A stretch of DNA of 64,000 nt, from the NCBI GenBank assembly GCA_934168305.1, contig CAKPNF010000001.1, positions 69,923 through 133,922 on the forward strand, in the 5' to 3' direction. The stretch is from an uncultured Clostridia bacterium. GTDB lineage: Bacteria; Bacillota; Clostridia; TANB77; CAG-508. This document shows positions 3,719-61,759 of this stretch, piece by piece (positions within the stretch are counted from its first letter, which is position 1; every line of letters begins with the position of its first letter). Position numbers and translations under genes: made by a program. The notes beneath the pieces are model-generated. The model was not told the DNA's origin. It did no database searches and worked only from the letters and a program-made list of their open reading frames with translations.

Positions 3719-3834
3719 GAGGGATTGAGGGGCCACCACACAAAATCCCTCTTTTATTTAATTTTTGTATAAAGTAAACATTTTAAATTTTTTATAAAAA
3801 AGAGGGATTTTGTGTGGTGGCCCCTCAATCCCTC
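3719..3834. repeat. palindromic intergenic element, locus 1: two perfectly inverted 33-bp GGGATT..GGGGCCACCAC..AATCCC units around a 50-nt AT spacer
   Basis: 3719-3751 is the exact reverse complement of 3802-3834. The element fills the whole yebC-rlmD intergenic gap. Confidence 0.85.
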
Positions 3835-5217: not shown

Positions 5218-5328
5218 AACCTTGTATTTCAAGGAAAATCAACTGTTCAGTGCCTAACTCATACCATATTAGGTGGTATGGGTTTAACTAAACAAAATAA
5301 AAAGTAGAGATTATAGGAGAAATAAAAA

Positions 5329-6552: not shown

Positions 6553-7101
6553 ATGGGAAAAGTTTTAAAAATAAGAGAAGTAGGAGATCCTATTCTTCAA
6601 AAAAAATGTGATGAAATAGATATAAAGAACATAAATAGAGAAATTTTAGACATCATAGAAGATTTAAAAGCAACATTGGAATTCGGTACAGGACTAGGCG
6701 TAGCCGCACCGCAAATAGGAGTAAATAAGAGAATAATTGTAGTAGGGGCTAAAAAAGAAAACATAAAATATAATGATGCAGAAGAAATACCAATAACTGC
6801 AATGATAAATCCAATTTGGAAAAAAATATCAGAAGATACTGACATACAATATGAAGGATGCATGAGTGTTCCAGTAATTAGGGGAAAAGTAGAAAGATAT
6901 AAAAATATAGAATTAACTTATTTTAACGAAAATGGAGAAAAAATTGTAAGACAAGTGAATGGATTTTTTGCAAGACTTGTTCAACATGAATGTGACCACT
7001 TAGATGGTATTGTATTTTTAGAAAAAGTAAAAGAACATAATGGTTTTGCAACAGTTGATAATATAAATAAATATAATTTAAGATATAAAGAAAGAATTTA
7101 G
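6553..7101 (+). CDS. def: peptide deformylase
   Basis: 182 aa. Motifs GLGVAAPQIG, EGCMSVP, QHECDHLDG (HExxH). Confidence 0.9.
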   Translation: MGKVLKIREVGDPILQKKCDEIDIKNINREILDIIEDLKATLEFGTGLGVAAPQIGVNKRIIVVGAKKENIKYNDAEEIPITAMINPIWKKISEDTDIQYEGCMSVPVIRGKVERYKNIELTYFNENGEKIVRQVNGFFARLVQHECDHLDGIVFLEKVKEHNGFATVDNINKYNLRYKERI

Positions 7102-7103
7102 AC

Positions 7104-7328
7104 ATGAAAATTTATAATATTAAACCAGAAGATTATAAAATAAAAATAGTTATGAAAGGTGAAAATATGAAATTACCTACAAGTATAGAAAATAGACTAA
7201 ATGAAAACATTGTAGAAAAAGCAAGAAACAATATGTTAACGAAATTATTTGTTTCTATTCAGATAATGACCCATAGTAGAAATCAAATTTTCACTTTTCA
7301 AAACTATACAGATTTATTTTTGAAATAA
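7104..7328 (+). CDS. hypothetical small protein
   Basis: 74-aa ORF abutting the def stop. No conserved motif recognised. Could be non-coding. Confidence 0.2.
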   Translation: MKIYNIKPEDYKIKIVMKGENMKLPTSIENRLNENIVEKARNNMLTKLFVSIQIMTHSRNQIFTFQNYTDLFLK

Positions 7329-7369
7329 AATTTTTAAGTCAAAAAAATAAAAAAATTATATAAATACTT

Positions 7370-7415
7370 GTCGGAAAGTCTCGTAAATGATATAATATTT
7401 ACGAGACTTTCCGAC
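7370..7415 (+). promoter_or_regulatory. 19-bp perfect inverted repeat (GTCGGAAAGTCTCGTAAAT / ATTTACGAGACTTTCCGAC) enclosing a sigma-A-like promoter: -35 TTGTCG (7368-7373), 17-nt spacer, -10 TATAAT (7391-7396). Probable AbiEi autoregulatory operator.
   Basis: Read directly from the sequence. Lies 15 nt upstream of the abiEi RBS. AbiEi antitoxins are known to autorepress through promoter inverted repeats. Confidence 0.6.
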
Positions 7416-7429
7416 AAAGGAGAAAAAAG

Positions 7430-8023
7430 ATGGATAATATAGAAAGAATTGAAAAATTATTAAAAAAGAATAATGGAATTATAACAACAAGTGAGGTTGA
7501 AAAAATAGGAATTAATAGCAGAGTTTTAACAAGGATGATAGAAAAAGGAATAATAGAAAGAGTTGCAAGAGGAATTTATATAAGTACTGATACATTAGAA
7601 GATAAATATTTTATTACACAAGCTATTTGTAAAAAAGGAATATTCTCGCATGAAACCGCTTTATATTTTCATGACTTGTGTGATAGAACACCAATAAAAT
7701 ATCAATTAACCATACCAAGTTATTATAATCATACACTTATAAAAAATAAAAATTATGAATTCTTTTATTTAAAAGAAGAATTGTATGAAGTTGGTATAAC
7801 AGAAATGATAACACCGTATGGAAACAAAATAAGAGTATATGATTTAGAAAGAACAATTTGTGATATTATTAGAAACAAAAAAAGAATAGAAATAGCATTA
7901 TTTACAGATGCAATGAAAAGATATGCAGAAAGAAAAGATAGAAACTCAATTAGATTACACAAATATGCGAAATTATTTAATATTGAAGATGAGATAAGAA
8001 AATATTTGGAGGTGTTGCTATGA
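7430..8023 (+). CDS. abiEi: type IV toxin-antitoxin system AbiEi family antitoxin (wHTH)
   Basis: 197 aa. N-terminus IEKLLKKNNGIITTSEVEKIGINSRVLTRMIEKGIIERVARGIY matches the AbiEi_4 domain. 4-nt overlap (ATGA) with the downstream toxin gene. Confidence 0.8.
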   Translation: MDNIERIEKLLKKNNGIITTSEVEKIGINSRVLTRMIEKGIIERVARGIYISTDTLEDKYFITQAICKKGIFSHETALYFHDLCDRTPIKYQLTIPSYYNHTLIKNKNYEFFYLKEELYEVGITEMITPYGNKIRVYDLERTICDIIRNKKRIEIALFTDAMKRYAERKDRNSIRLHKYAKLFNIEDEIRKYLEVLL

Positions 8024-17498: not shown

Positions 17499-17570
17499 GA
17501 AATATAAAATCAAATAATAGACATCTAATAATAACAACGATGATGATAAAAATGAAGAAGAGAAAAACAA

Positions 17571-17627
17571 AAAGCAAGATTTTTTAAGTATATAATTAAC
17601 TTAAGAAATCTTGCTTTAATTTTTTAA
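17571..17627. terminator. bidirectional rho-independent terminator between convergent genes
   Basis: 12-bp stem AAAGCAAGATTT / AAATCTTGCTTT. T-runs on both sides. Confidence 0.6.
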
Positions 17628-25278: not shown

Positions 25279-25324
25279 ACCAATGGGAACGTTCTTAAAT
25301 TGGTTCAAAAGAAGGAGGAAATTT

Positions 25325-26974
25325 ATGAAAATTACATTTTTAGGAGCTACAAAAACAGTAACAGGCTCTAACTATTTAATAGAAGCTGCAGGAAAAAAAT
25401 TCTTAGTTGATTGCGGAATGTGGCAAGGAAGAAAAGAACTAGAGGAAGAAAATTTTGATGAATTTGATTTTAATCCAGCAGAAATAGACTTTATGTTATT
25501 AACACATGCACATATTGACCACTCAGGAAGAATACCAAAACTATACAACGAAGGATTTAAAAATAAAATATATGCACATAAAGCAACATGTGACTTATGT
25601 GCACTAATGTTACCAGACAGTGGACACATTCAAGAAATGGAAAATGAATGGAAGAACAGAAAGAGAATGAGAAAAGGCTTAGAAGCCAGAGAGCCACTAT
25701 ATACCGCAGAACAAGCAGCAAGATGTTTGGAAATATTTGAACCAGTTCAATATGACCAAATAATAGAGATAACACCAGATATTCACGTAAGATTCAATGA
25801 TGCTGGACATATGTTAGGTTCAAGTATAATTGAATTATGGGTAAATGAAGAAGGAAAACAAACTAAAACAGTATTTACAGGAGATTTAGGAAATAATGAT
25901 ATACCATTATTAAGTGAACCAACAATGATAGAAGATGCAGATTATTTAGTAATGGAATCAACATATGGAAGTAGAAAACACATAAAAAATGACCAAAAAG
26001 CAGAAATGTTTTTGGATATAGTATCAGAAACACTCGATAACAACGGAACTGTAGTAATACCATCATTCGCAGTAGGAAGAACACAAGAAATATTATATGA
26101 ATTAAATAAAATAAAAGAAACAAAAGATGACGAAAAATTCATGAAAGAATATGAAACATTAATGAAAGCACCAGTATATGTAGACAGTCCACTTGCAATA
26201 TCAGCAACAGAAGTATTCAAAGAAAATATGAATTTATTTGATGAAGAGACACAAGAAGAAATGAAAAGAGGAGACCAACCACTTGAATTTCCAGGATTAA
26301 AATTTACTACAACAGCTGACGAATCAAAAGCTTTAAACGAAAATCCAGAGCCATGTATAATAATATCAGCAAGTGGAATGTGTGAAGTAGGAAGAATAAA
26401 ACATCATTTAAAACACAATTTATGGAATCCAAACTCAACAATACTTTTTGTTGGATATCAAGCACCAGGAACACTAGGATATAGCATTGTAAATGGTGCA
26501 AAAAAAGTAAAAATATTTGGAGAAGAAATAGCAGTAAATGCAAGAATAGAATATATAGAAGGATATTCAGGACATGCAGACCAAGATGGATTAATGAATT
26601 TTGTATATTCATTTATTAAAAAACCTAAACAAGTATTTTTAATCCATGGTGAAGAAGAATCCCAAGAAATACTTGGAGAAAAAATTGAGAATGAAGCTCA
26701 ATTACCAGTAATAATACCAAACTATGGCGAAACATATGAACTAAATGTAAACGAAGATGTTAAATTAACACATAAAATTGATAAAAAATTACCTGTTAAT
26801 ATGAAAACTGAAGTATTAAAGAGACTAGAAAAATTAAAAGACGAATTAATAGATATGGAAACATCAGTTAAAGAAGATATGAATAATAAAGATTTAAAAG
26901 ATGATGATATTTTTAGGATTAGTGAAAAAATTAAAGACTTGGAAAAACAAATTTTAAATGTAATTGAAGGATAA
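25325..26974 (+). CDS. MBL-fold beta-CASP family ribonuclease (CPSF/RNase J-like)
   Basis: HAHIDHSG metallo-beta-lactamase motif. Beta-CASP and C-terminal RNA-MBL region. Start moved to ATG 25325 after GGAGG. Confidence 0.75.
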   Translation: MKITFLGATKTVTGSNYLIEAAGKKFLVDCGMWQGRKELEEENFDEFDFNPAEIDFMLLTHAHIDHSGRIPKLYNEGFKNKIYAHKATCDLCALMLPDSGHIQEMENEWKNRKRMRKGLEAREPLYTAEQAARCLEIFEPVQYDQIIEITPDIHVRFNDAGHMLGSSIIELWVNEEGKQTKTVFTGDLGNNDIPLLSEPTMIEDADYLVMESTYGSRKHIKNDQKAEMFLDIVSETLDNNGTVVIPSFAVGRTQEILYELNKIKETKDDEKFMKEYETLMKAPVYVDSPLAISATEVFKENMNLFDEETQEEMKRGDQPLEFPGLKFTTTADESKALNENPEPCIIISASGMCEVGRIKHHLKHNLWNPNSTILFVGYQAPGTLGYSIVNGAKKVKIFGEEIAVNARIEYIEGYSGHADQDGLMNFVYSFIKKPKQVFLIHGEEESQEILGEKIENEAQLPVIIPNYGETYELNVNEDVKLTHKIDKKLPVNMKTEVLKRLEKLKDELIDMETSVKEDMNNKDLKDDDIFRISEKIKDLEKQILNVIEG

Positions 26975-26978
26975 ATAA

Positions 26979-27066
26979 GCGGGATTACGGGGCCAGGACT
27001 CAAAATCCCTCATAAATAATATATAAATATTTATAAGGGATTTTGAGTCCTGGCCCCGTAATCCCT
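26979..27066. repeat. palindromic intergenic element, locus 3 (loop variant GGGGCCAGGACTC). Inverted pair around a 24-nt spacer, followed by a T-tract.
   Basis: 26979-27011 against 27036-27066 gives 29 bp of exact complementarity. TCTTTTTT follows, so it may act as an intrinsic terminator. Confidence 0.8.
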
Positions 27067-27089
27067 TCTTTTTTAGAAAGGAAACAAAA

Positions 27090-28994
27090 ATGGAAAACAA
27101 ATACTTAAACGAAGCAATAATTGGAAATAAAAAAATGATAGCAACATTTACAAGCAAAGGGGAGATGCAAAGAATATATTTTCCAAGTAAAGATAACAAA
27201 CAATATATAAATTACTTTCATACAGGAGTAAAAGTAAATGAATCGGATTTAATATATTTGCATGAAGATATAAATAACACATACAAACAATATTATGATA
27301 CAGATACAAATATATTAAATACTGAAATTACAAATACATACTTTAATTTAAAAATACTTCAAACAGATTATTTTTTAACTAAAGAAAATGTATTATCAAA
27401 AAAATATATCTTTATAAATGATGGAGCAATAGATTTAAATACAGAATTTTATGTCCATTCAGAATTATTATCTGATTTAAATAATTTTGTTGGATGCAAA
27501 ATAGTTGATGGTGGTATGATGCAATATGCACATGACTTTGCTTTTTCAACATTTTCTAAGGGTAAAGATATTATAAAACATCAAATAAATGGAAGTATAA
27601 ACAATATAAAAAGGACAGAAATACATGACAAAGATTATATAGGAATGTCAAAAGATACTTCCATCGCATACGAAATTGGTTTAATAAAACCTGGTGAAAA
27701 GAAAGAATTACAAATATGTATATTAATTGATGAAAATAAAAATATATCAGAAATAGAAGATGAAATTGAAAGAGTTAAAAGAATCGATTTTGAAAAAGAA
27801 TATATAAATACAAAAACATACTGGAGAAAATATGTAAAAAATCATAATGGGCTTAAATTAAAAGAACCAGAGACAGCATATGAAGAAAGAATTTATGAGA
27901 TATATAAAAGAAGTATATTACTATTCCCACTATTAACAAATGCTGAGACAGGTGCAATCATTGCCTCACCTGAGATCGATGAAAATTTCACAAAATGCGG
28001 ACGATATGCATATTGTTGGCCAAGAGATGCTGTTTTTACGACCAAAGCTATGGATATATTAAAAATGAACAAAGAAACAGAAAAGTTTTATAAAGTCTTT
28101 TGTAAAAAAACTCAAAGCAAAAATGGAATGTGGGAACAACGTTTTTACACAGATGGAAAATTAGCTCCATGTTGGGGATATCAAATAGATGAAACATCAA
28201 GCGTTGTTTATGGTGTACATGAACATTATAAGTATTCTAAATCAGAAAAATTTTTAAAAGATAATTTACAAATGTGCGAAAAAGCGATTGATTTCTTAAA
28301 AAGATATGTAAAAGATATATTTGAAAAAACCAATAAATATCATGTGAGCTATGATTTATGGGAAATGTCTGAAGGTATACACTTATATTCACTAGCAAGC
28401 ATTTATGCTGCATTTGAATGCATATTAAAAATATATAGTATATTAGGAAATGACGTATCAGAGTTTGAAAACAATAGATTAAAACAAGAAAAAGTTGAAA
28501 AAAATAAAAAAGAAATAGAAAAATTACAACTTGAGATTAAAAAATTTATCAATAAATATTTATATGATGAAGAAAAGAAATCATATATTAGAAATACTGA
28601 AGATAAAAAAATGGACATAAGCATAATTGGTTCAGTTACTCCATTTGAAGTGTTTAAACCAAAAGAAAATAAAATTCAAAACACTGTTGAGAGAATAAAT
28701 TTAAGTTTAAGAACTTATACTGGTGGATATCAAAGATTTGAAAACGATAATTATATGAATGGAAATCCATGGCCAATTGCTAATCTTTGGATGACATTAT
28801 ATTATTTAGAAACTGGTGAAAAAAAGAAAGCAAAAGAAACATTTGATTTTGTAATAAAGACAGTAGGAAAGCACAATTTATTGGGAGAACAGATAGACAA
28901 TAATACGTTAAAACCTAACTGGGTAATAGGACTTGGATGGTCACATGCAATGTTTATTATAGTGCTAGAAAAATTATATGGGAGAGAAGCATGA
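27090..28994 (+). CDS. glycoside hydrolase family 15 protein (glucoamylase/glucodextranase-like)
   Basis: 634 aa. YCWPRDAVFT and (alpha/alpha)6 GH15 signatures. Confidence 0.75.
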   Translation: MENKYLNEAIIGNKKMIATFTSKGEMQRIYFPSKDNKQYINYFHTGVKVNESDLIYLHEDINNTYKQYYDTDTNILNTEITNTYFNLKILQTDYFLTKENVLSKKYIFINDGAIDLNTEFYVHSELLSDLNNFVGCKIVDGGMMQYAHDFAFSTFSKGKDIIKHQINGSINNIKRTEIHDKDYIGMSKDTSIAYEIGLIKPGEKKELQICILIDENKNISEIEDEIERVKRIDFEKEYINTKTYWRKYVKNHNGLKLKEPETAYEERIYEIYKRSILLFPLLTNAETGAIIASPEIDENFTKCGRYAYCWPRDAVFTTKAMDILKMNKETEKFYKVFCKKTQSKNGMWEQRFYTDGKLAPCWGYQIDETSSVVYGVHEHYKYSKSEKFLKDNLQMCEKAIDFLKRYVKDIFEKTNKYHVSYDLWEMSEGIHLYSLASIYAAFECILKIYSILGNDVSEFENNRLKQEKVEKNKKEIEKLQLEIKKFINKYLYDEEKKSYIRNTEDKKMDISIIGSVTPFEVFKPKENKIQNTVERINLSLRTYTGGYQRFENDNYMNGNPWPIANLWMTLYYLETGEKKKAKETFDFVIKTVGKHNLLGEQIDNNTLKPNWVIGLGWSHAMFIIVLEKLYGREA

Positions 28995-31140: not shown

Positions 31141-31215
31141 TGGGGTGTAGCCAAGCGGTAAGGCAGATGGCTCTGACCCATCGATGCGTAGGTTCGAATC
31201 CTACCACCCCAGCCA
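31141..31215 (+). tRNA. tRNA-Gln (anticodon CUG)
   Basis: Manual cloverleaf. Acceptor TGGGGTG/CACCCCA. Anticodon stem GATGG/CCATC with loop CTCTGAC. T-arm GTAGG-TTCGAAT-CCTAC. Discriminator G + CCA. Confidence 0.9.
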
Positions 31216-31232
31216 CATTATTATATTAAATT

Positions 31233-33704
31233 TTATAACTCTCTATTTAAATTTCCGTTCGTAAATTCTTTACCTTCTAATCTTTTTTTATCTAAAACTT
31301 GATTAACAATAGAATTTATTTCACTAACTGTCTCATCTAAAATATCAATTCTAGCACAATCAATATTAAAATCAGAAGTAACAATAGAAGTTATTTTACT
31401 ATTATAAATAGTTGAAACAGTTTGAAAATTATCAAATAAAATTCTAAATTTCATATTTAATCTATCTTTCAAATAATATCTGTTATTAGAATTACACTTA
31501 GATAAACAAGTAGGATAGCATTTATTTGAATTTCCAGTTAAACAATAATTTATATTCATTAATGGAGTATTTCCATAAACAATAAGTTCTTTATTTAAGC
31601 AATGATTATCACATAAATCAGTAATAATATTCTTATTAGATTCAGGTGAAATAGTAAATCTTGAAATTCCTAATTTTTTTAATTCATATACACTATAATT
31701 ATTAAATACATTAAATGTATAATTAGCAATCAATTCAAAATCTTTATTACTTAATACATTATCTAATAGTTTTAAATTTGATATATTAGATATAACAAAC
31801 CCTTGAATATTATATTTTTCAATAGTCTTCTCTATAATATTAAAAAATAAATTTCTATAATTAGCTTTTATGATAGTAGGTAAATAAATAAAAATTTTGA
31901 ATTTTTTTTGCAAACATTCTAAAATATTTAAATATTTTATATTTGAAAAATATTTTAAAGGAATGTATACATTATCAATACCATCTAAGTTAGAATAATC
32001 AAAATCTAAATTTAAGATATTTAACAAAACCGAAACTTGTTTTCTAGTAGAGTCTTTTTTGTTAATATCAATTTCTTTCAAATCTAAAGAACTAATTTTA
32101 TTATTATTATTTAAAACATTCTTTCTTTTTATATTATCAATAGCATAATTATAAACATCGTCTAAAGCATTTCTCCTAAGCTCATTTAAAGCACTTATTC
32201 TTGGTAAAAAAACACTATCATCTAATTCAATGTCAATATTTTTAAATTCATATATAGAATCTTTTGTTTTTGACAATTGAGTTATAATTCTATCTTTATC
32301 TAAAGGCTTATTTTGGGCCATTTCAGGAACAACATCTGATTTACAATTTATATTTAATCCAGAATATATATCTAGATTATTAGCTGAAGTAACATTCAAA
32401 CTAATAGGAAATCCTTTTTTTACAATTATTTTACAATTTAATGCAATTTTTCTATTTTCATTTTTTATACTTTGTTGGGCAAGTAAATTTAATTTTTTAG
32501 ATGATATTTTATATATCTTATCACCTAAATTTATATTTCCTTTCATTCTTCCAATTGTAACAGTTTGACCAATAAAAGTATCTTTTATATTTTTATCCTT
32601 TAACATTAATTCAGAAACATTATAAGTTCCAGATTCTTTTTCAAGAGATATTGTGTCACCAATCTCAATAGGTTCCTGTAATTTCACAGTAATATAACCT
32701 TTATTTTTATTATATTTTTCAACTTTTCCTAGAAACAATCCCATATTATTAGGTTTTTCCTTAAATATTAAATTTTTATTAGGTTCATTAGATAAGTGAC
32801 CTGATGAAGACATTCCTCTGTTGAATACTTGCAACAATGTTTTTCTATCAATTTCATCAACAATATATTCTTTACCGCTCTCAACTAAATCAATATATTT
32901 TCTATATATTCTAGTAACTGTTGCAACATATTCAGGGTTCTTCATTCTTCCTTCGATTTTTAAGCATGTAACACCAGCATTTATTAAATCTGGAATATAA
33001 TCTAATCCACATAAATCACGAGTGCTTAAAAGATGTCCTTGATTTATTTTTTTATCATTTTCTAATAATTGATAAGGAAGTCTACAAGGTTGAGCACATT
33101 TACCACGATTACCAGAACGCCCACCGACCATACTTGAAAACAAGCATTGACCAGAATAAGAAATACATAATGCTCCATGTATAAAACATTCAATTTCAAT
33201 ATTTGAATTACTGCAAATATATTCTATTTCTTGGATAGAAAGCTCACGTGATAATACAACTCTTTTAAAACCTAAATCTTCCATTTTTAAAACACCCTGC
33301 AAATTATGAATAGTCATTTGTGTACTTGCATGAATATCTAGGTCAGGAAATTGCTTTATTAGTTGTTTAGCTAATCCCAAATCCTGAACAATTATTGCAT
33401 CTATACCAAATTTGTAAGCTTTTTCAGCAAGTTCAAAAGCCTTATCAAATTCGTCATCTGTTACTAAAGTATTTAATGTTAAATTGGTTTTTACACCACG
33501 AGTTTTTGCGTATAATATAACATCCTCCAACTGCTTTAAATCAAAATTTGAAGCATAGGCTCTTGCACTAAATAAATTCGCACCAAAATAAACACTATTT
33601 GCTCCATTTTGAACAGCTGCTTTTAAACAATCAAAATCACCAACTGGTGAAAGTAAATCAATCATTTTTTTATCCTCCACACAAATTATAACATTTTTTG
33701 ACAA
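31233..33704 (-). CDS. peptidase U32 family protein (long form with C-terminal extension)
   Basis: 823 aa. ECFIHGALCISYSGQC U32 signature. N-terminal TIM-barrel-like region. Confidence 0.8.
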   Translation of the reverse strand: MSKNVIICVEDKKMIDLLSPVGDFDCLKAAVQNGANSVYFGANLFSARAYASNFDLKQLEDVILYAKTRGVKTNLTLNTLVTDDEFDKAFELAEKAYKFGIDAIIVQDLGLAKQLIKQFPDLDIHASTQMTIHNLQGVLKMEDLGFKRVVLSRELSIQEIEYICSNSNIEIECFIHGALCISYSGQCLFSSMVGGRSGNRGKCAQPCRLPYQLLENDKKINQGHLLSTRDLCGLDYIPDLINAGVTCLKIEGRMKNPEYVATVTRIYRKYIDLVESGKEYIVDEIDRKTLLQVFNRGMSSSGHLSNEPNKNLIFKEKPNNMGLFLGKVEKYNKNKGYITVKLQEPIEIGDTISLEKESGTYNVSELMLKDKNIKDTFIGQTVTIGRMKGNINLGDKIYKISSKKLNLLAQQSIKNENRKIALNCKIIVKKGFPISLNVTSANNLDIYSGLNINCKSDVVPEMAQNKPLDKDRIITQLSKTKDSIYEFKNIDIELDDSVFLPRISALNELRRNALDDVYNYAIDNIKRKNVLNNNNKISSLDLKEIDINKKDSTRKQVSVLLNILNLDFDYSNLDGIDNVYIPLKYFSNIKYLNILECLQKKFKIFIYLPTIIKANYRNLFFNIIEKTIEKYNIQGFVISNISNLKLLDNVLSNKDFELIANYTFNVFNNYSVYELKKLGISRFTISPESNKNIITDLCDNHCLNKELIVYGNTPLMNINYCLTGNSNKCYPTCLSKCNSNNRYYLKDRLNMKFRILFDNFQTVSTIYNSKITSIVTSDFNIDCARIDILDETVSEINSIVNQVLDKKRLEGKEFTNGNLNREL

Positions 33705-40498: not shown

Positions 40499-40531
40499 GA
40501 GGGATTAAGGGGCCACCACACCAAATCCCTC
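40499..40531. repeat. palindromic intergenic element, locus 2: single 33-bp unit (GAGGGATTAAGGGGCCACCACACCAAATCCCTC)
   Basis: 8-bp internal stem GAGGGATT/AATCCCTC. No inverted partner downstream. Confidence 0.75.
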
Positions 40532-42322: not shown

Positions 42323-42436
42323 GAGGGATTAAGGGGCCACCACTCCAAATCCCTTTTAATTTAATTATTATTTTATAGTTATATATATTAATTTAATATA
42401 AAGAAAGGGATTTGGAGTGGTGGCCCCTTAATCCCT
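42323..42436. repeat. palindromic intergenic element, locus 4 (loop variant CCACTCC). Inverted pair around a 49-nt AT spacer.
   Basis: 42323-42355 against 42404-42436 is 32/33 complementary. Fills the nrnA-truB gap. Confidence 0.85.
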
Positions 42437-43324: not shown

Positions 43325-43384
43325 AAAGAAACATAAATATTAAAACATTTCATATACTTAAGTAAAAGTATGTGAGGTGTTTTA

Positions 43385-44224
43385 ATGTTTTATATAGAAA
43401 AAAATGACAAGCCTAATTGGATAGAGAAAAAATTGAATTTGATTAAAATACAAGACAATACAATTTTATTGCCAATTACAAAAGAAATTGGCAATAAAAA
43501 AATAGAAATATTAGCACAAAAAACAAGAAAATCGATTCAAAAATATTCTAATAGTAAAAAAATAGTTTTAAGTAAAGAAATGTATAATGAAAAAATATAC
43601 TTAAATTATTTAAACACATATGGGTTAGAAATCCAAGATGGAAGATGGTTATTTGAAATATTGTTACCTGATACAGTAGAATACATAATAGATAAGAAAA
43701 AAATAGAAAAAACAAATATATCAATAATGATAAATGATTTAACCGATATTGAATTAGAAAACATCAAAATTCTTGCAAAAAAATATAAAAATATAAACAT
43801 AGTAACAAATCATATTGAGAAATTCAGAAAATTAGAAAAACAATTAGATGAAAATGAAGGAATAATAATAACAATAACAAACAATAAAAAGAAAAGCCTA
43901 ATGAAATCACAAATTATTTTAAACATTGATTTTCCACAAGAATTAATCAATAAATACAACATATATGATGATGCAGTAATTGTAAATTTAAAAGGAAATA
44001 TTAAAATCAATAAAAAAAGATTTAATGGACTAAATATAAATAATTATGAAATAAACTTTAGATTTGATAAGCAAAACAATAAAGCACTAAATAATAAATA
44101 TTATTTAAAAGATTTGTATCAGTCTGAGTTATATAAAAGGCAAAGAATAAGTGAAATAAAAAAACAAATAAAAAATGATAAAGTAGTTATTAAAAATCTT
44201 ATAATAAATAATGGAGAATTATAA
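43385..44224 (+). CDS. hypothetical protein (occupies the position where ribF often follows truB)
   Basis: 279 aa, N/K-rich. No FAD synthetase or riboflavin kinase motifs. Confidence 0.3.
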   Translation: MFYIEKNDKPNWIEKKLNLIKIQDNTILLPITKEIGNKKIEILAQKTRKSIQKYSNSKKIVLSKEMYNEKIYLNYLNTYGLEIQDGRWLFEILLPDTVEYIIDKKKIEKTNISIMINDLTDIELENIKILAKKYKNINIVTNHIEKFRKLEKQLDENEGIIITITNNKKKSLMKSQIILNIDFPQELINKYNIYDDAVIVNLKGNIKINKKRFNGLNINNYEINFRFDKQNNKALNNKYYLKDLYQSELYKRQRISEIKKQIKNDKVVIKNLIINNGEL

Positions 44225-53995: not shown

Positions 53996-55243
53996 ATGAG
54001 AATAATAAAAAAATATGGAAAAGACATATTATATAAGGAATTAAAGAAAAGCTATAATTTTTTTATTAAAGAAGCAAATACAGATAAAAAAAGCAAAGGC
54101 TATGGACTAATAAAAGATAAAACAATTTTAGCTGATAATATAGCAAGTATAGCATCAGTAGGATATGGTTTAGCAGCATTAGTTATCGGAGTAGAACATA
54201 ATTGGATAAAATATAAAAAGGCTTATGATAGAGTAAACAGAACACTAGAAACCTTTATAAATAACGTAGAAGGAAAAAACGGGTTTTATTATCATTTTGT
54301 GAATATGCAAACAGGAAAAAGAGAATGGAATTGTGAAGTATCAATAATAGATACAGCAATTTTTATATGTGGTGCTATAACTGCAGGTGAATATTTCGGA
54401 AAAGAAGTAAAAAATAAAGCAAATATTTTATATAAAAGAATAAATTGGAAATGGTATAGAAACGAAACAAACAATTTATTTTATATGGGATATAAACCTG
54501 AAAAAGGATTTTGGGGACAATGGGATGGATATGCTGAACAATTAATGATGTATGTATTAGGAGTTAGTTCACCAACATATCCAATAGATAAAAGTATGTA
54601 TTATGAATTTAATAGAAAAAAGAAAGATTATAAAGATATAAAGGATATAATATATACATATTGTGGAACATTATTTACATATCAATATTCACATGCATGG
54701 ATTGATTTTAGAAATTTAACAGATATTAATGGAGTTAATTGGTTTGAAAATTCAATAAAAGCGACAAAAGCAAATAGAGAATATTGTATAGATAATAAGA
54801 GCAAATTTAAAACTTATGGAGAAAATTCCTGGGGATTAACTGGTTGTCTTTCTCCTAAAGGGTATATAGGACCAGGAGCTGAACCTTGTGATACTAATTT
54901 AGAAATAGAAAACGATGGAACAATATCTCCATGTGGTGCAATTGGTTCAATAGTGTTTACACCAAAGGAAAGCATACAGTCCATGGAATATTATTATAAT
55001 ACATTTAGAAAATTGTGGGGAAAATACGGCTTTAAAGATGGCTTTAATTTAGAAGGGAAAAAAGGCTGGTTTGCAAATGAATACATAGGAATTGATAAAG
55101 GAATAGGAATGTTAATGATAGAAAATTATTTAAATGAAACTATATGGAAATATTTTATGAAAAATGAGTATGTCATTAAAGGATTAGAAATGTTAGAATT
55201 TACTGATACTAAATCAGAAGATTTGAAATTTAACAAAATATAA
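53996..55243 (+). CDS. glucoamylase-like (DUF3131 / GH144-like alpha-alpha toroid) family protein
   Basis: 415 aa. The family resemblance is tentative. Confidence 0.4.
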   Translation: MRIIKKYGKDILYKELKKSYNFFIKEANTDKKSKGYGLIKDKTILADNIASIASVGYGLAALVIGVEHNWIKYKKAYDRVNRTLETFINNVEGKNGFYYHFVNMQTGKREWNCEVSIIDTAIFICGAITAGEYFGKEVKNKANILYKRINWKWYRNETNNLFYMGYKPEKGFWGQWDGYAEQLMMYVLGVSSPTYPIDKSMYYEFNRKKKDYKDIKDIIYTYCGTLFTYQYSHAWIDFRNLTDINGVNWFENSIKATKANREYCIDNKSKFKTYGENSWGLTGCLSPKGYIGPGAEPCDTNLEIENDGTISPCGAIGSIVFTPKESIQSMEYYYNTFRKLWGKYGFKDGFNLEGKKGWFANEYIGIDKGIGMLMIENYLNETIWKYFMKNEYVIKGLEMLEFTDTKSEDLKFNKI

Positions 55244-58506: not shown

Positions 58507-59803
58507 AAGCAAATAATAAGCAAAATAGGAGATTACTATGATAATAACGGAAATATTTCAGAAACAATCTAAATAATGTTATTAAAATTGAATTATGTGG
58601 GCAAGGATTGTGGGATTATGAAAGTTTGAATTTTTATTATAGTGATGGTAAAAGCAAATCTGTTAATTTATATACTACTGAACAACATTATTACATAGAA
58701 GAATATTTATATAATAATACATCTAACTATGATTATATATTTAAAATTTCTATATTTATAAGTTTGGCAACAATTGCTTTTACTATATATGTTGGTATAA
58801 GAAAAAAAAACAATTTTAAAATTAGTAAATTATTAAAAAATAGTATTTTAGAAGGAAAATGTATTTTATGAAAAAAAGATTATATTAACAATTTTATTTA
58901 TAATTATAATGATATTTATTTGTTATTGGTTATATTCAAATACAGGATTAAAAAAATTTGAAAAAGAAATTTCCAGTTTTATATTACCAGAAGGAATTGA
59001 AAAAGTTACAATAAAAAGTGGAATAGGAGATTCGGGAGGTAATGGAGAATATTCAACATATCGTGTAGTTTTGGTTGTGAAGTCAAAAATGCCAATAGAG
59101 CAATTAAATCAGGAATTTGAAAAACAAAACTTAACATTTTCAAGCCATATTGAAAATAGTAGTACACCTATTTGTTACATTACTCATTGCGAAGATAGTA
59201 TATTTAAATCAGAAAGAAATTTTATATTAGAATTTGATGAACTAAAAAAAGTAAAGGATTTTACTGATTATTATTTTATTGAATTTATTAAATAAAATAC
59301 AAATGTAGATTATAATTGTATGTTTGGTATCTTGCAAATGTTATTAAGGAATGATATATTAAAATTGGTTTATGAACAATAATAAAGAAGGGAGATGTTT
59401 TTAATTATGAATAAATCAAATAAAGTTTTTGAAGGAATAATAATTGTATTGATTATTGCTTTAATAATAATGTCTATTTTATACTTTGACATGAGAGCCA
59501 AAGCAAAGAAAAATTTAAATGACTTCTTGAATCAATGTGAAGTAACTTCTAATTTATATAAAGAATTAGATGAATTAAAAAATAATGATAATAATTTAGA
59601 TGGTAATTTCTTATTTTCAGAAGAAGGAAAATAATGATGAATAACAAATATAAATAAATTTTTATTTATTATATAAATATTTTTTTGATATTGAGCCTCA
59701 AAGGCTCTTTTTTTTATAAAATATTTAATTAAAAAATAATGTTACCTTTTTCAAAAAAATGGTAATATATAAATAGATATCTAAAAAGGAGCTCTAAAGC
59801 AAA

Positions 59804-60362: not shown

Positions 60363-61506
60363 AATAATAGAAAATATTATAAAAAAATCACAAATGAAAA
60401 TAGCTGTATCTGAATTTGCAAAGGAGAGAAAAGAAATGCCTAAAATAAATAAAATTTCAAAATATGTTGCAACAGCAATTATAACATTAGGAATTGGAAC
60501 AGGAATCGTATATGCAACTGGAACTACTATTTATGATAAAATATGGAAACAACCAGAAACGTATAAAATATCTAATGAAATTACAGAAAAAGATAAGGAA
60601 AATGCAATTAGTGAAGAAGAGGCAAGAAAAAAAGCAGAAGAATATTTAAGAAAAATAGGATTAGAAGATGAAATAAACGGACTAGGATTAATGAAAAGTT
60701 GGAGAGGAAATGATGTTATATGGGATATAGGGTTCACAAAAGGAACAATGCAGATGGATAGTAAAGGAAATTTTCAAAGTCTAAATATTCCATCATATAA
60801 TTATAAAATTCCATATAATTACGGAATAACAAGAGAAGAAGCAAGAAAAACAGCAAAAGAATTATTATTAAAATATAATCCTAACAATAATTCTGATGAA
60901 TACGAATTAGTATCACTTCATAGAAATATGGAAAATGATAAGGCTTCATATATTTGGTATGCAGATTTTTATAAAAAATATGGAGATTTATATAATCAGT
61001 ACGAAAAAATATCAATTGGGTGGATACCAACAATTAATGGTCTATATAGTTTAAATATAGAAAACTCAAAATATGAAAATAATGAACAAATTATTACAAA
61101 AGAGGAAGCAATAAAAATTGCAACAGAAAGAGATAAAAAAATTGAAACAAGACATAATATAGCAACTACCAAAGCACAAATTGGTATCGATAAAATGAAT
61201 GCAGATGTTGTATATAGAGAAAAAGATATAGAAAATTACAATAAAGGAACAATTAATTATGAATGTGATGAAAATGGAACATATAAAATAAAAGATAATG
61301 CAGAATTTTACAAAGTTGATAATCGTGTCAGAAAAGTTTGGGAAGTAAAGATTTTTTATGATTATTATAATGAATATTATCAAGAAAGATATGTTTATTA
61401 TGTTGATGCAACAACAGGAGAAATTATTGGTGGAAATAGCTGGAGTGGCTCAACTGAACAAGTAGCACAATTAATTGAAAGTCAATATAATCTTATAGAA
61501 AAATAA
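60349..61506 (+). CDS. anti-sigma factor: single TM + extracytoplasmic PepSY-like repeats
   Basis: TM helix VATAIITLGIGTGIVYATG. Repeated ..EEARKKAEEYL.. / ITREEARKTAKELL / ITKEEAIKIATER PepSY-like units. Overlaps the sigma gene by 14 nt. Confidence 0.6.
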   Translation: MKEDKIIENIIKKSQMKIAVSEFAKERKEMPKINKISKYVATAIITLGIGTGIVYATGTTIYDKIWKQPETYKISNEITEKDKENAISEEEARKKAEEYLRKIGLEDEINGLGLMKSWRGNDVIWDIGFTKGTMQMDSKGNFQSLNIPSYNYKIPYNYGITREEARKTAKELLLKYNPNNNSDEYELVSLHRNMENDKASYIWYADFYKKYGDLYNQYEKISIGWIPTINGLYSLNIENSKYENNEQIITKEEAIKIATERDKKIETRHNIATTKAQIGIDKMNADVVYREKDIENYNKGTINYECDENGTYKIKDNAEFYKVDNRVRKVWEVKIFYDYYNEYYQERYVYYVDATTGEIIGGNSWSGSTEQVAQLIESQYNLIEK

Positions 61507-61759
61507 AAAGAAGTCCAGTATGAACTCTATTTTTTAGAGGTATAGTTCAGTTTGGACTTCTTTTTTGATAATAGAGTATGATACAATAAAAAATATTTAT
61601 ATAAAATTTAAAACTAAAAGATGTAAATTTATATTTAAAAGATTAGAGTTATTAGATAAAAAGTATAAATATGTTGTTTGAAAATATTTTTTGTGTTAGA
61701 ATATAAAAAACAATCATACTACTTTGTGAGAAAATATTGTAATTGGAGGTAATGATATA

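Follow-up and report, generated by a model that had tools for sequence, protein, structure and literature searches.

A palindrome behind an RNase J-like gene in uncultured low-GC Clostridia as a probable REPIN of a RAYT-associated repeat family

The locus 3 palindrome and its repeat unit

The 64-kb stretch of DNA analyzed here (the window, always meaning the whole stretch) contains a near-perfect palindrome, locus 3, between two co-directional genes, one for an RNase J-like protein and one for a protein of glycoside hydrolase family 15 (GH15). Coordinates of these features are listed in Table 1. The palindrome has two 38-nt arms (26981-27018 and 27028-27065) that are 97% complementary; the 9 nt separating them (27019-27027) form the central loop. 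The stop codon of the RNase J-like gene lies 6 nt ahead of the first arm, and the GH15 gene starts 24 nt past the second, the T-tract being followed by the Shine-Dalgarno-like AGAAAGGAAA (27075-27084) and then by the ATG at 27090. RNA folding of the region 26960-27095 gave -70 kcal/mol, with z = -11.3 relative to shuffled sequences.

Table 1. Features at locus 3 and the other copies of the repeat in the window.
Feature	Position	Strand	Description
Locus 1 doublet	3721..3832	.	Both arms GGGATTGAGGGGCCACCACACAAAATCCC, 54-nt spacer; orthologues L021, L025
Upstream gene of locus 3	25283..26974	+	Metallo-beta-lactamase / beta-CASP / RMMBL protein, RNase J-like
REP unit, arm 1 of locus 3 doublet	26981..27009	+	GGGATTACGGGGCCAGGACTCAAAATCCC, AGGAC-TC subfamily
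Locus 3 spacer	27010..27036	.	27 nt, AT-rich; homologous spacer in orthologues L049, L050
REP unit, arm 2 of locus 3 doublet	27037..27065	-	Exact reverse complement of arm 1
T-tract	27066..27074	+	TTCTTTTTT, directly 3' of the locus 3 long hairpin
Downstream gene of locus 3	27090..28994	+	Glycoside hydrolase family 15 protein
Locus 2 single unit	40501..40529	+	Orthologue L066; variant-loop unit in L002
Locus 4 doublet	42325..42435	.	Both arms GGGATTAAGGGGCCACCACTCCAAATCCC, 53-nt spacer

The repeated entity is not the long palindrome but a unit of about 33 nt, GAGGGATT-NN-GGGGCCACCAC-NNN-AAATCCCTC, and locus 3 is an inverted doublet of it. Arm 1 reads GGGATTACGGGGCCAGGACTCAAAATCCC and arm 2 reads GGGATTTTGAGTCCTGGCCCCGTAATCCC, while the outer 9 nt on each side of the spacer (27010-27018 and 27028-27036) lengthen the palindrome beyond the units themselves. 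Each unit is also a hairpin in its own right, with an 8-bp stem and a conserved 17-nt loop. Six pairs of this stem, GGGATT/AATCCC, are invariant and the two outer pairs covary (AT, CG, or TA at the first and GC, TA, or AT at the second); the observed outer pairing was reached in 0/2000 shuffles at both pairs, and the bases 5' of GGGATT vary among GA, GC, TC, AC, AA, and others. The arm-1 unit of locus 3 has this stem complete, GGGATT/AATCCC plus two outer pairs. The loop is conserved save at seven positions; we looked for pairing inside it, and for a partner of the CC to GG change within a unit, and found none that was consistent in either case.

The original prediction held that the locus 3 variant CCAGGACTC is mirrored by exact complementary changes in the partner arm, and that CCACTCC of locus 4 is likewise paired with GGAGTGG. 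Both statements were confirmed in the two arms concerned. The name "loop core" that it gave to the variable bases is a misnomer for the doublet: in the long hairpin these bases are part of the stem, and it is in the hairpin of a single unit that they fall within the loop.

A relaxed pattern finds seven units in the window, vs. 0.00 expected in shuffles, and these make up three doublets (loci 1, 3, and 4) and one single unit (locus 2). Their density is about one per 9 kb and their placement strictly extragenic. Locus 1 carries CCACCACAC in both arms, and the gene upstream of the locus 2 unit, which encodes 969 aa, has its stop codon 10 nt before the unit. An nhmmer profile search of the window gave no copies beyond these seven, and a 2-mismatch match at 54505 was set aside as a chance match within coding sequence.

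An Rfam scan of the whole window at gathering level returned one tRNA gene (31141-31212) and no match at the repeat elements. This tRNA gene adjoins the one long block of minus-strand genes (31233-33704), over which the GC skew is briefly reversed; elsewhere the skew is positive almost throughout, and about 45 of the 49 long ORFs are on the plus strand. The window also holds a perfect palindrome with a 20-bp stem (TGTCGGAAAGTCTCGTAAAT...ATTTACGAGACTTTCCGACA, 7369-7416, in the intergenic gap 7101-7430) that is unrelated to the REP family. Two further hairpins, at 17563-17625 and 61505-61565, are flanked by A-runs and T-runs (AAAAA...TTTTT) and have the look of bidirectional terminators. The second begins at the stop codon of a gene ending at 61506; both have loops of 9-11 nt and are hence missed by a standard terminator scan.

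The repeat, a RAYT-like transposase, and the concordance of doublet arms in related genomes

Scanning one genome per species with the exact pattern yielded 73 loci, all from MAGs of uncultured Clostridia with a low GC content (about 26-30%), several of them from human-gut samples. Units were counted by a fixed-register scan allowing at most two mismatches to the fixed bases, and nhmmer was also used. The 73 loci and the window (584 kb of related loci) contain 131 units, namely 40 doublets (80 units) and 51 singles. All 40 doublets are convergent (+/- order), with spacers of 12 to 204 nt and several unrelated spacer sequences. The sole divergent (-/+) pair, at L062 4677-4744, has its units 10 nt apart and one of them degenerate (GGGTTT..., CCAGTAC). 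The "AGGAC" variant forms a small subfamily of about 12 units.

Apart from one case that is an artefact of crude ORF calling, all units are intergenic, and relative to genes they are found in either orientation. The neighbours of doublets are co-directional genes in 23 cases, convergent genes in seven, and divergent genes in two; doublets typically follow a stop codon by a few nucleotides and precede the next start by anything from a few to about 25 nt. For singles, the 5' side falls 0-19 nt past a same-strand stop codon in 32 of 51. No target-site duplications are visible in the doublet flanks.

Some copies are elaborated. At L032 3905-4135, tandem partial units, GGGATTAAGGGGCCACCAC(C/T)CGAAA with a period of 25, lie on the outer side of both arms, and similar tandems are found at L047 4983-5137, L058 6386-6513, and L007 6248-6410. 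Mirrored in this way, they bring the palindrome to a length above 200 nt. A mini-hairpin could form from CCC-GAAA-GGG at each junction, and the junctions may be sites of cutting or joining by the RAYT described below. Shorter stutters (GGGATTAAG, GGGATTACGG) are present in L018, L043, L048, L009, and L022. A doublet family of MAG CAYQBQ (L011 4991-5170, L028 7548-7731, L015 4972-5167) has a long spacer of 122-138 nt, in which a GC-richer core, GACCCATAGGTAGACCCCAGCTAT, sits between AT-rich inverted segments.

In MAG CAKPDN, units flank a candidate transposase gene. The locus L053 encodes a 251-aa RAYT-like Y1 transposase (1818-2573) with a unit in plus orientation on one side (1671-1699) and one in minus orientation on the other (2580-2608). 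The protein scores 41.5 bits against Pfam Y1_Tnp (cut-off 23) and 66.1 bits (E = 2.9e-18) against the NCBIfam model REP_Tyr_transpos NF047646, whose equivalog cut-off is 80 bits; its score against the NCBIfam IS200 model, 17.9 bits, is far under that of the RAYT model. The best PDB match, E. coli TnpA-REP (4ER8), is weak (E = 0.016), and the HxH and YIxxNP motifs align between the two proteins. The Clostridia protein has a C-terminal extension of about 110 aa. A gut metagenome contig (L074) encodes a RAYT 76% identical to this one behind the same ferredoxin gene, with a unit 95 nt upstream; only the left unit is present, as the contig ends. Among about 59 RAYT homologues (34-76% identity), most are flanked by inverted repeats of their own in +/- order, many with GGGAC or GGGGAC, and several of these repeats recur nearby. 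No RAYT was found by tblastn in the 64-kb window. In MAG CAKOUU, the region syntenic with L053 1671-2608 (L006 5435-6415) has a unit after the 59-aa ferredoxin gene and a LysR-type gene in place of the RAYT; that MAG has two exact-pattern units, vs. 53 units in the RAYT-bearing CAKPDN.

The arms of doublets agree far better than chance pairing of arms would give. Over the 29-nt cores, within-pair mismatches average 0.85, vs. 2.43 when partners are shuffled among loci (0/10000 as low), and 24 of the 40 doublets are perfect. An alignment of all 40 gives 90.1% standard pairs in the inter-arm helix, with 17 pairs changed on both sides and 123 double-change cells, vs. 56 +/- 5.7 in shuffles (0/500); sliding the helix as a control lowers pairing to 41-53%. 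The expectation that arm-to-arm complementarity is maintained despite divergence between loci is thus borne out by covariation above all shuffles. Independent divergence of the arms, which the original prediction had named as the outcome that would overturn it, is not general, because of these mismatch and double-change counts; exceptions are L054, L017, and several CAYQBQ doublets. Some doublets have 3-7 mismatches, and the arms of L054 and L017 are identical at only 22/29 and 25/29 positions. In L054 (3161-3230, 12-nt spacer), an AGGAC arm stands opposite an ACCAC arm (GGGGCCAGGACTCC opposite GGGGCCACCACATA), so that its arms come from different subfamilies; doublets therefore need not start perfect, or they tolerate heavy mismatch.

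Spacers indicate how part of this agreement arose. Seven CAKPDN loci that lack homology in their flanks share one 45-48-nt spacer together with an ATA arm type, five other loci share a spacer of about 54 nt, and spacers are also common to L004 and L038 and, in CAYQBQ, to L011 and L028. The concordance comes partly from copying of whole doublets and partly from compensated change in place.

Change in place can be followed at orthologous sites, where several related MAGs match the window at 77-97% identity over the aligning stretches. The locus 3 spacer is homologous in three species (the window, L049, and L050), all of which have AGGACTC in both arms. The AGGAC-TC bases are thus those of a subfamily inherited at locus 3 and not a one-off mutation. 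At the NN position, the C:G pair of the window corresponds to T:A in L050 and to a mismatch in L049, whose copy has two uncompensated mismatches. At locus 1, GA/TC in the window and L021 stands against AA/TT in L025, and L021 has one uncompensated C to T change. At orthologous loci 1 and 3, conservation is far stronger in the cores than in the spacers, and therefore some constraint or repeated conversion has acted on the cores.

Other sites differ in what they hold. The site of locus 4 in L002 has a single unit plus a T-run and no doublet, and orthologous sites are often single in one species and doublet in another, or have unrelated spacers (L004 vs. L028). These differences point to turnover at fixed sites. 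Occupancy of orthologous sites in several species fits conserved host elements and ancient insertions equally. The L002 orthologue (~5270-5300) of window positions 40499-40531 keeps its stem, with TCGGGATT/AATCCCGA compensated relative to GA/TC; its loop differs (AGGGGACGGGTCTCC) and could itself pair, and the GGGGAC motif of this variant-loop unit also occurs in the repeats found around genes for distant RAYT homologues.

Matching changes in the two arms could also be a by-product of mutation, through template switching or gene conversion in a quasi-palindrome, together with fresh doublet insertions replacing old ones. Template-switch mutation in quasi-palindromes is established in E. coli, and we give this account of the arm changes a little under an even chance. 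It draws on the position of both compensated differences at the hypervariable NN bases, on the uncompensated mismatches that coexist with them in L049 and L021, on the doublets with several mismatches, and on the orthologous sites whose doublets have unrelated spacers. It also draws on the share of perfect doublets, which is 19/21 in the RAYT-bearing CAKPDN vs. 2/12 in CAYQBQ. The present data fit selection as well, however, and the conservation of cores relative to spacers speaks for constraint or for conversion repeated many times over. Selection on the long stem, as first proposed, is consistent with the compensated orthologue changes and the covariation, both of which show the stem to be kept, but arm-to-arm conversion or template switching gives the same pattern.

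A probable REPIN and the alternative explanations

The locus 3 palindrome is very probably a REPIN belonging to a REP/REPIN-RAYT system. The association with a RAYT rests on the unit-flanked gene in CAKPDN and on RAYT homologues with flanking inverted repeats of their own. Counting against the REPIN reading are the score of this RAYT under the NCBIfam equivalog cut-off, the absence from the unit of a 5' GTAG or CGTC tag, the unusual size of the unit's conserved loop, the result that the 64-kb window has no RAYT, and the occupation of orthologous sites in several species. Under this reading, REP-type units and doublets would be moved by a single-copy RAYT, a Y1/HUH transposase. By analogy with E. 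coli TnpA-REP and IS200/IS605 elements, the enzyme would bind to the hairpin of a unit within single-stranded DNA, cleave beside it, and insert copies of units or of entire doublets at further intergenic positions. The locus 3 copy is probably old, given that at least three species have it at this site with homologous spacers, and its arms appear to have changed together since, so that the long stem is still perfect. The covariation is genuine but is expected for elements of the REPIN type. The idea of copy-paste of whole hairpins in the manner of a MITE holds for the family insofar as whole doublets have been copied, as seen from the shared spacers and the unit-flanked RAYT; the element is not a classical MITE with terminal inverted repeats (TIRs), being REPIN-like and of the Y1/HUH, single-stranded-DNA-hairpin type.

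Once transcribed, the locus 3 doublet would be a very stable hairpin between two co-directional genes, which may, as a secondary role, stabilize or end the transcript of the upstream RNase gene. A terminator role for the hairpin with its T-tract is possible, and the tract is conserved as TCTTTTT in L049 and L050. The claim that only this copy is followed by a T-tract applies to the outer side, among the doublets of the window; inner T-runs follow arm 1 of locus 1 (TCTTTTATTT) and of locus 4 (TTTTAATTT). T-runs (at least 5 of 8) are found 3' of 76% of singles and 66% of arms, vs. 28% in background, and it is because they are the norm in the family that the claim has to be limited in this way. 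A genuine role at locus 3 in forming or stabilizing a 3' end seems to us rather unlikely.

A broader version of the same idea would make the unit primarily a host RNA element, either an intrinsic terminator or an intercistronic hairpin for stabilization or processing, with the RAYT link secondary. Such a reading could amount to co-option and so coexist with the REPIN reading. The position of singles just past same-strand stop codons agrees with it, as do the T-runs after and A-runs before most of them (A-runs precede 75%), the presence of units at the same intergenic sites across species, and the conserved T-tract of locus 3. A single unit with its flanks (AAAAAAGC-unit-GCTTTTTT) folds at -13.5 kcal/mol (z = -5.7) and looks like a bidirectional terminator. 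Canonical terminator-like sites on the plus strand of the window number only two (43339-43386, weak; 59693-59707, good), a scarcity that leaves room for co-option of units.

Several features count against the host-element reading, which we judge unlikely. The conserved 17-nt loop is atypical of terminators and unnecessary for termination, and units occur in either orientation relative to genes. Doublets stand 3-25 nt from the next ribosome-binding site with no room for a promoter, so that efficient termination would silence housekeeping genes inside operons. At locus 3, the ribosome-binding site directly after the T-tract and the ATG within 24 nt likewise leave no promoter room. Promoter-like matches are at chance level (133 vs. 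138 expected), and spacers are therefore not read as promoters. Rfam has no match to the unit, and a consensus terminator scan did not call the locus 3 hairpin, whose 9-nt loop and 37-bp stem exceed the limits of the tool. Lastly, the spacer-sharing copies and the units around the RAYT gene indicate mobility.

The two ideas can be combined in a scheme that we find doubtful, in which REP units have been domesticated as gene-end hairpins of the host (terminators, attenuators, or mRNA stabilizing or processing sites), with arms kept by RNA selection. New REPINs, by preferentially landing on or converting sites that already bear units, would then refresh the same intergenic sites repeatedly.

A classical TIR-MITE derived from an insertion sequence with a DDE transposase (Correia- or NEMIS-like) would likewise have inverted ends, here of about 33 nt, around an AT-rich intergenic interior, but is very improbable: the interiors vary from 12 to 204 nt and belong to several unrelated sequences, target-site duplications are not visible in the flanks, each supposed TIR is a hairpin that also occurs alone (51 singles), and the flanked gene is for a Y1/HUH transposase and not a DDE enzyme. 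Least probable of all is a DNA-uptake-like motif with inverted-pair terminators (as in Neisseria DUS or Haemophilus USS) or a structured regulatory RNA, for although conserved inverted pairs do lie downstream of genes, the low density and strictly extragenic placement are unlike uptake sequences, Rfam gives no match to the unit, and the RAYT association would be unaccounted for. Readings as integron attC sites, CRISPR, or tRNA-like elements were rejected on the housekeeping genes, the wrong core sites and periods, and the absence of target duplications.

Comparison with known systems

To our knowledge, work on REPIN-RAYT systems has been confined almost entirely to Proteobacteria, and a REP/REPIN population with a RAYT in uncultured gut Clostridia of low GC content extends the range of known hosts. 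If domestication is true, this would be a REPIN-RAYT system in Firmicutes that supplies regulatory hairpins. The compact unit, an 8-bp stem with a conserved loop containing GGGGCC, suits tests of RAYT recognition, and orthologous copies in sister species make arm co-evolution, change from single to doublet, and turnover at fixed sites traceable. Identity as a REPIN also accounts for the conspicuous GC-rich palindromes of these MAGs, and counsels caution toward bespoke regulatory readings.

In published work, a survey of RAYTs places Group 1 RAYTs in Clostridia and ties abundant repeats only to groups 2 and 3 (PMC5581495). The REP superfamilies defined by a GTAG/CGTC tag were described with no mention of Clostridia or Firmicutes (Di Nocera et al., 2013; PMC3733652), and this tag is absent from our unit. 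A full-text literature search for the unit core sequence returned unrelated primers only.

The closest parallel is with the REPINs of Pseudomonas fluorescens SBW25, for which inverted doublets, decaying singlets, and common compensatory changes have been described (Bertels and Rainey, 2011; PMC3116915). In both systems a long hairpin is made of two inverted REP units and a spacer, changes across this hairpin are commonly compensated, and the repeat lies outside genes and also flanks a RAYT gene; doublets are in excess and show stronger conservation than singlets. The Clostridia system differs in the sequence of its unit and in the 8-bp stem with a conserved 17-nt loop, in having several unrelated spacer families over its 12-204-nt range, in its host (a ~26% GC uncultured gut Clostridia lineage), in the C-terminal extension of its RAYT, and in the tandem stuttering of partial units symmetrically on both arms.

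Likeness extends to the REP sequences and BIMEs of E. coli, which are also short extragenic palindromes after genes, often in inverted pairs, and whose TnpA-REP (RayT, 4ER8) is likewise a Y1/HUH enzyme with HxH and YIxxNP motifs. E. coli REPs can stabilize upstream mRNA. The Clostridia unit, however, has no 5' GTAG tag, and most copies are followed by T-runs that give them a terminator-like look.

With IS200/IS605 elements (IS608, ISDra2), the system shares the Y1 transposase fold (Pfam Y1_Tnp), the lack of target-site duplication, and subterminal hairpins recognized as single-stranded DNA, recognition of the unit by the Clostridia RAYT being predicted. It differs in that the RAYT is single-copy in what was sampled, while the hairpins have multiplied independently. 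Correia elements and DUS pairs of Neisseria resemble the repeat as abundant intergenic inverted repeats that form transcript hairpins by genes and have possible terminator or processing roles. Unlike the Clostridia repeat, Correia elements duplicate TA at the target and are conserved in their interior, DUS serve as signals for uptake, and neither is linked to a Y1 transposase.
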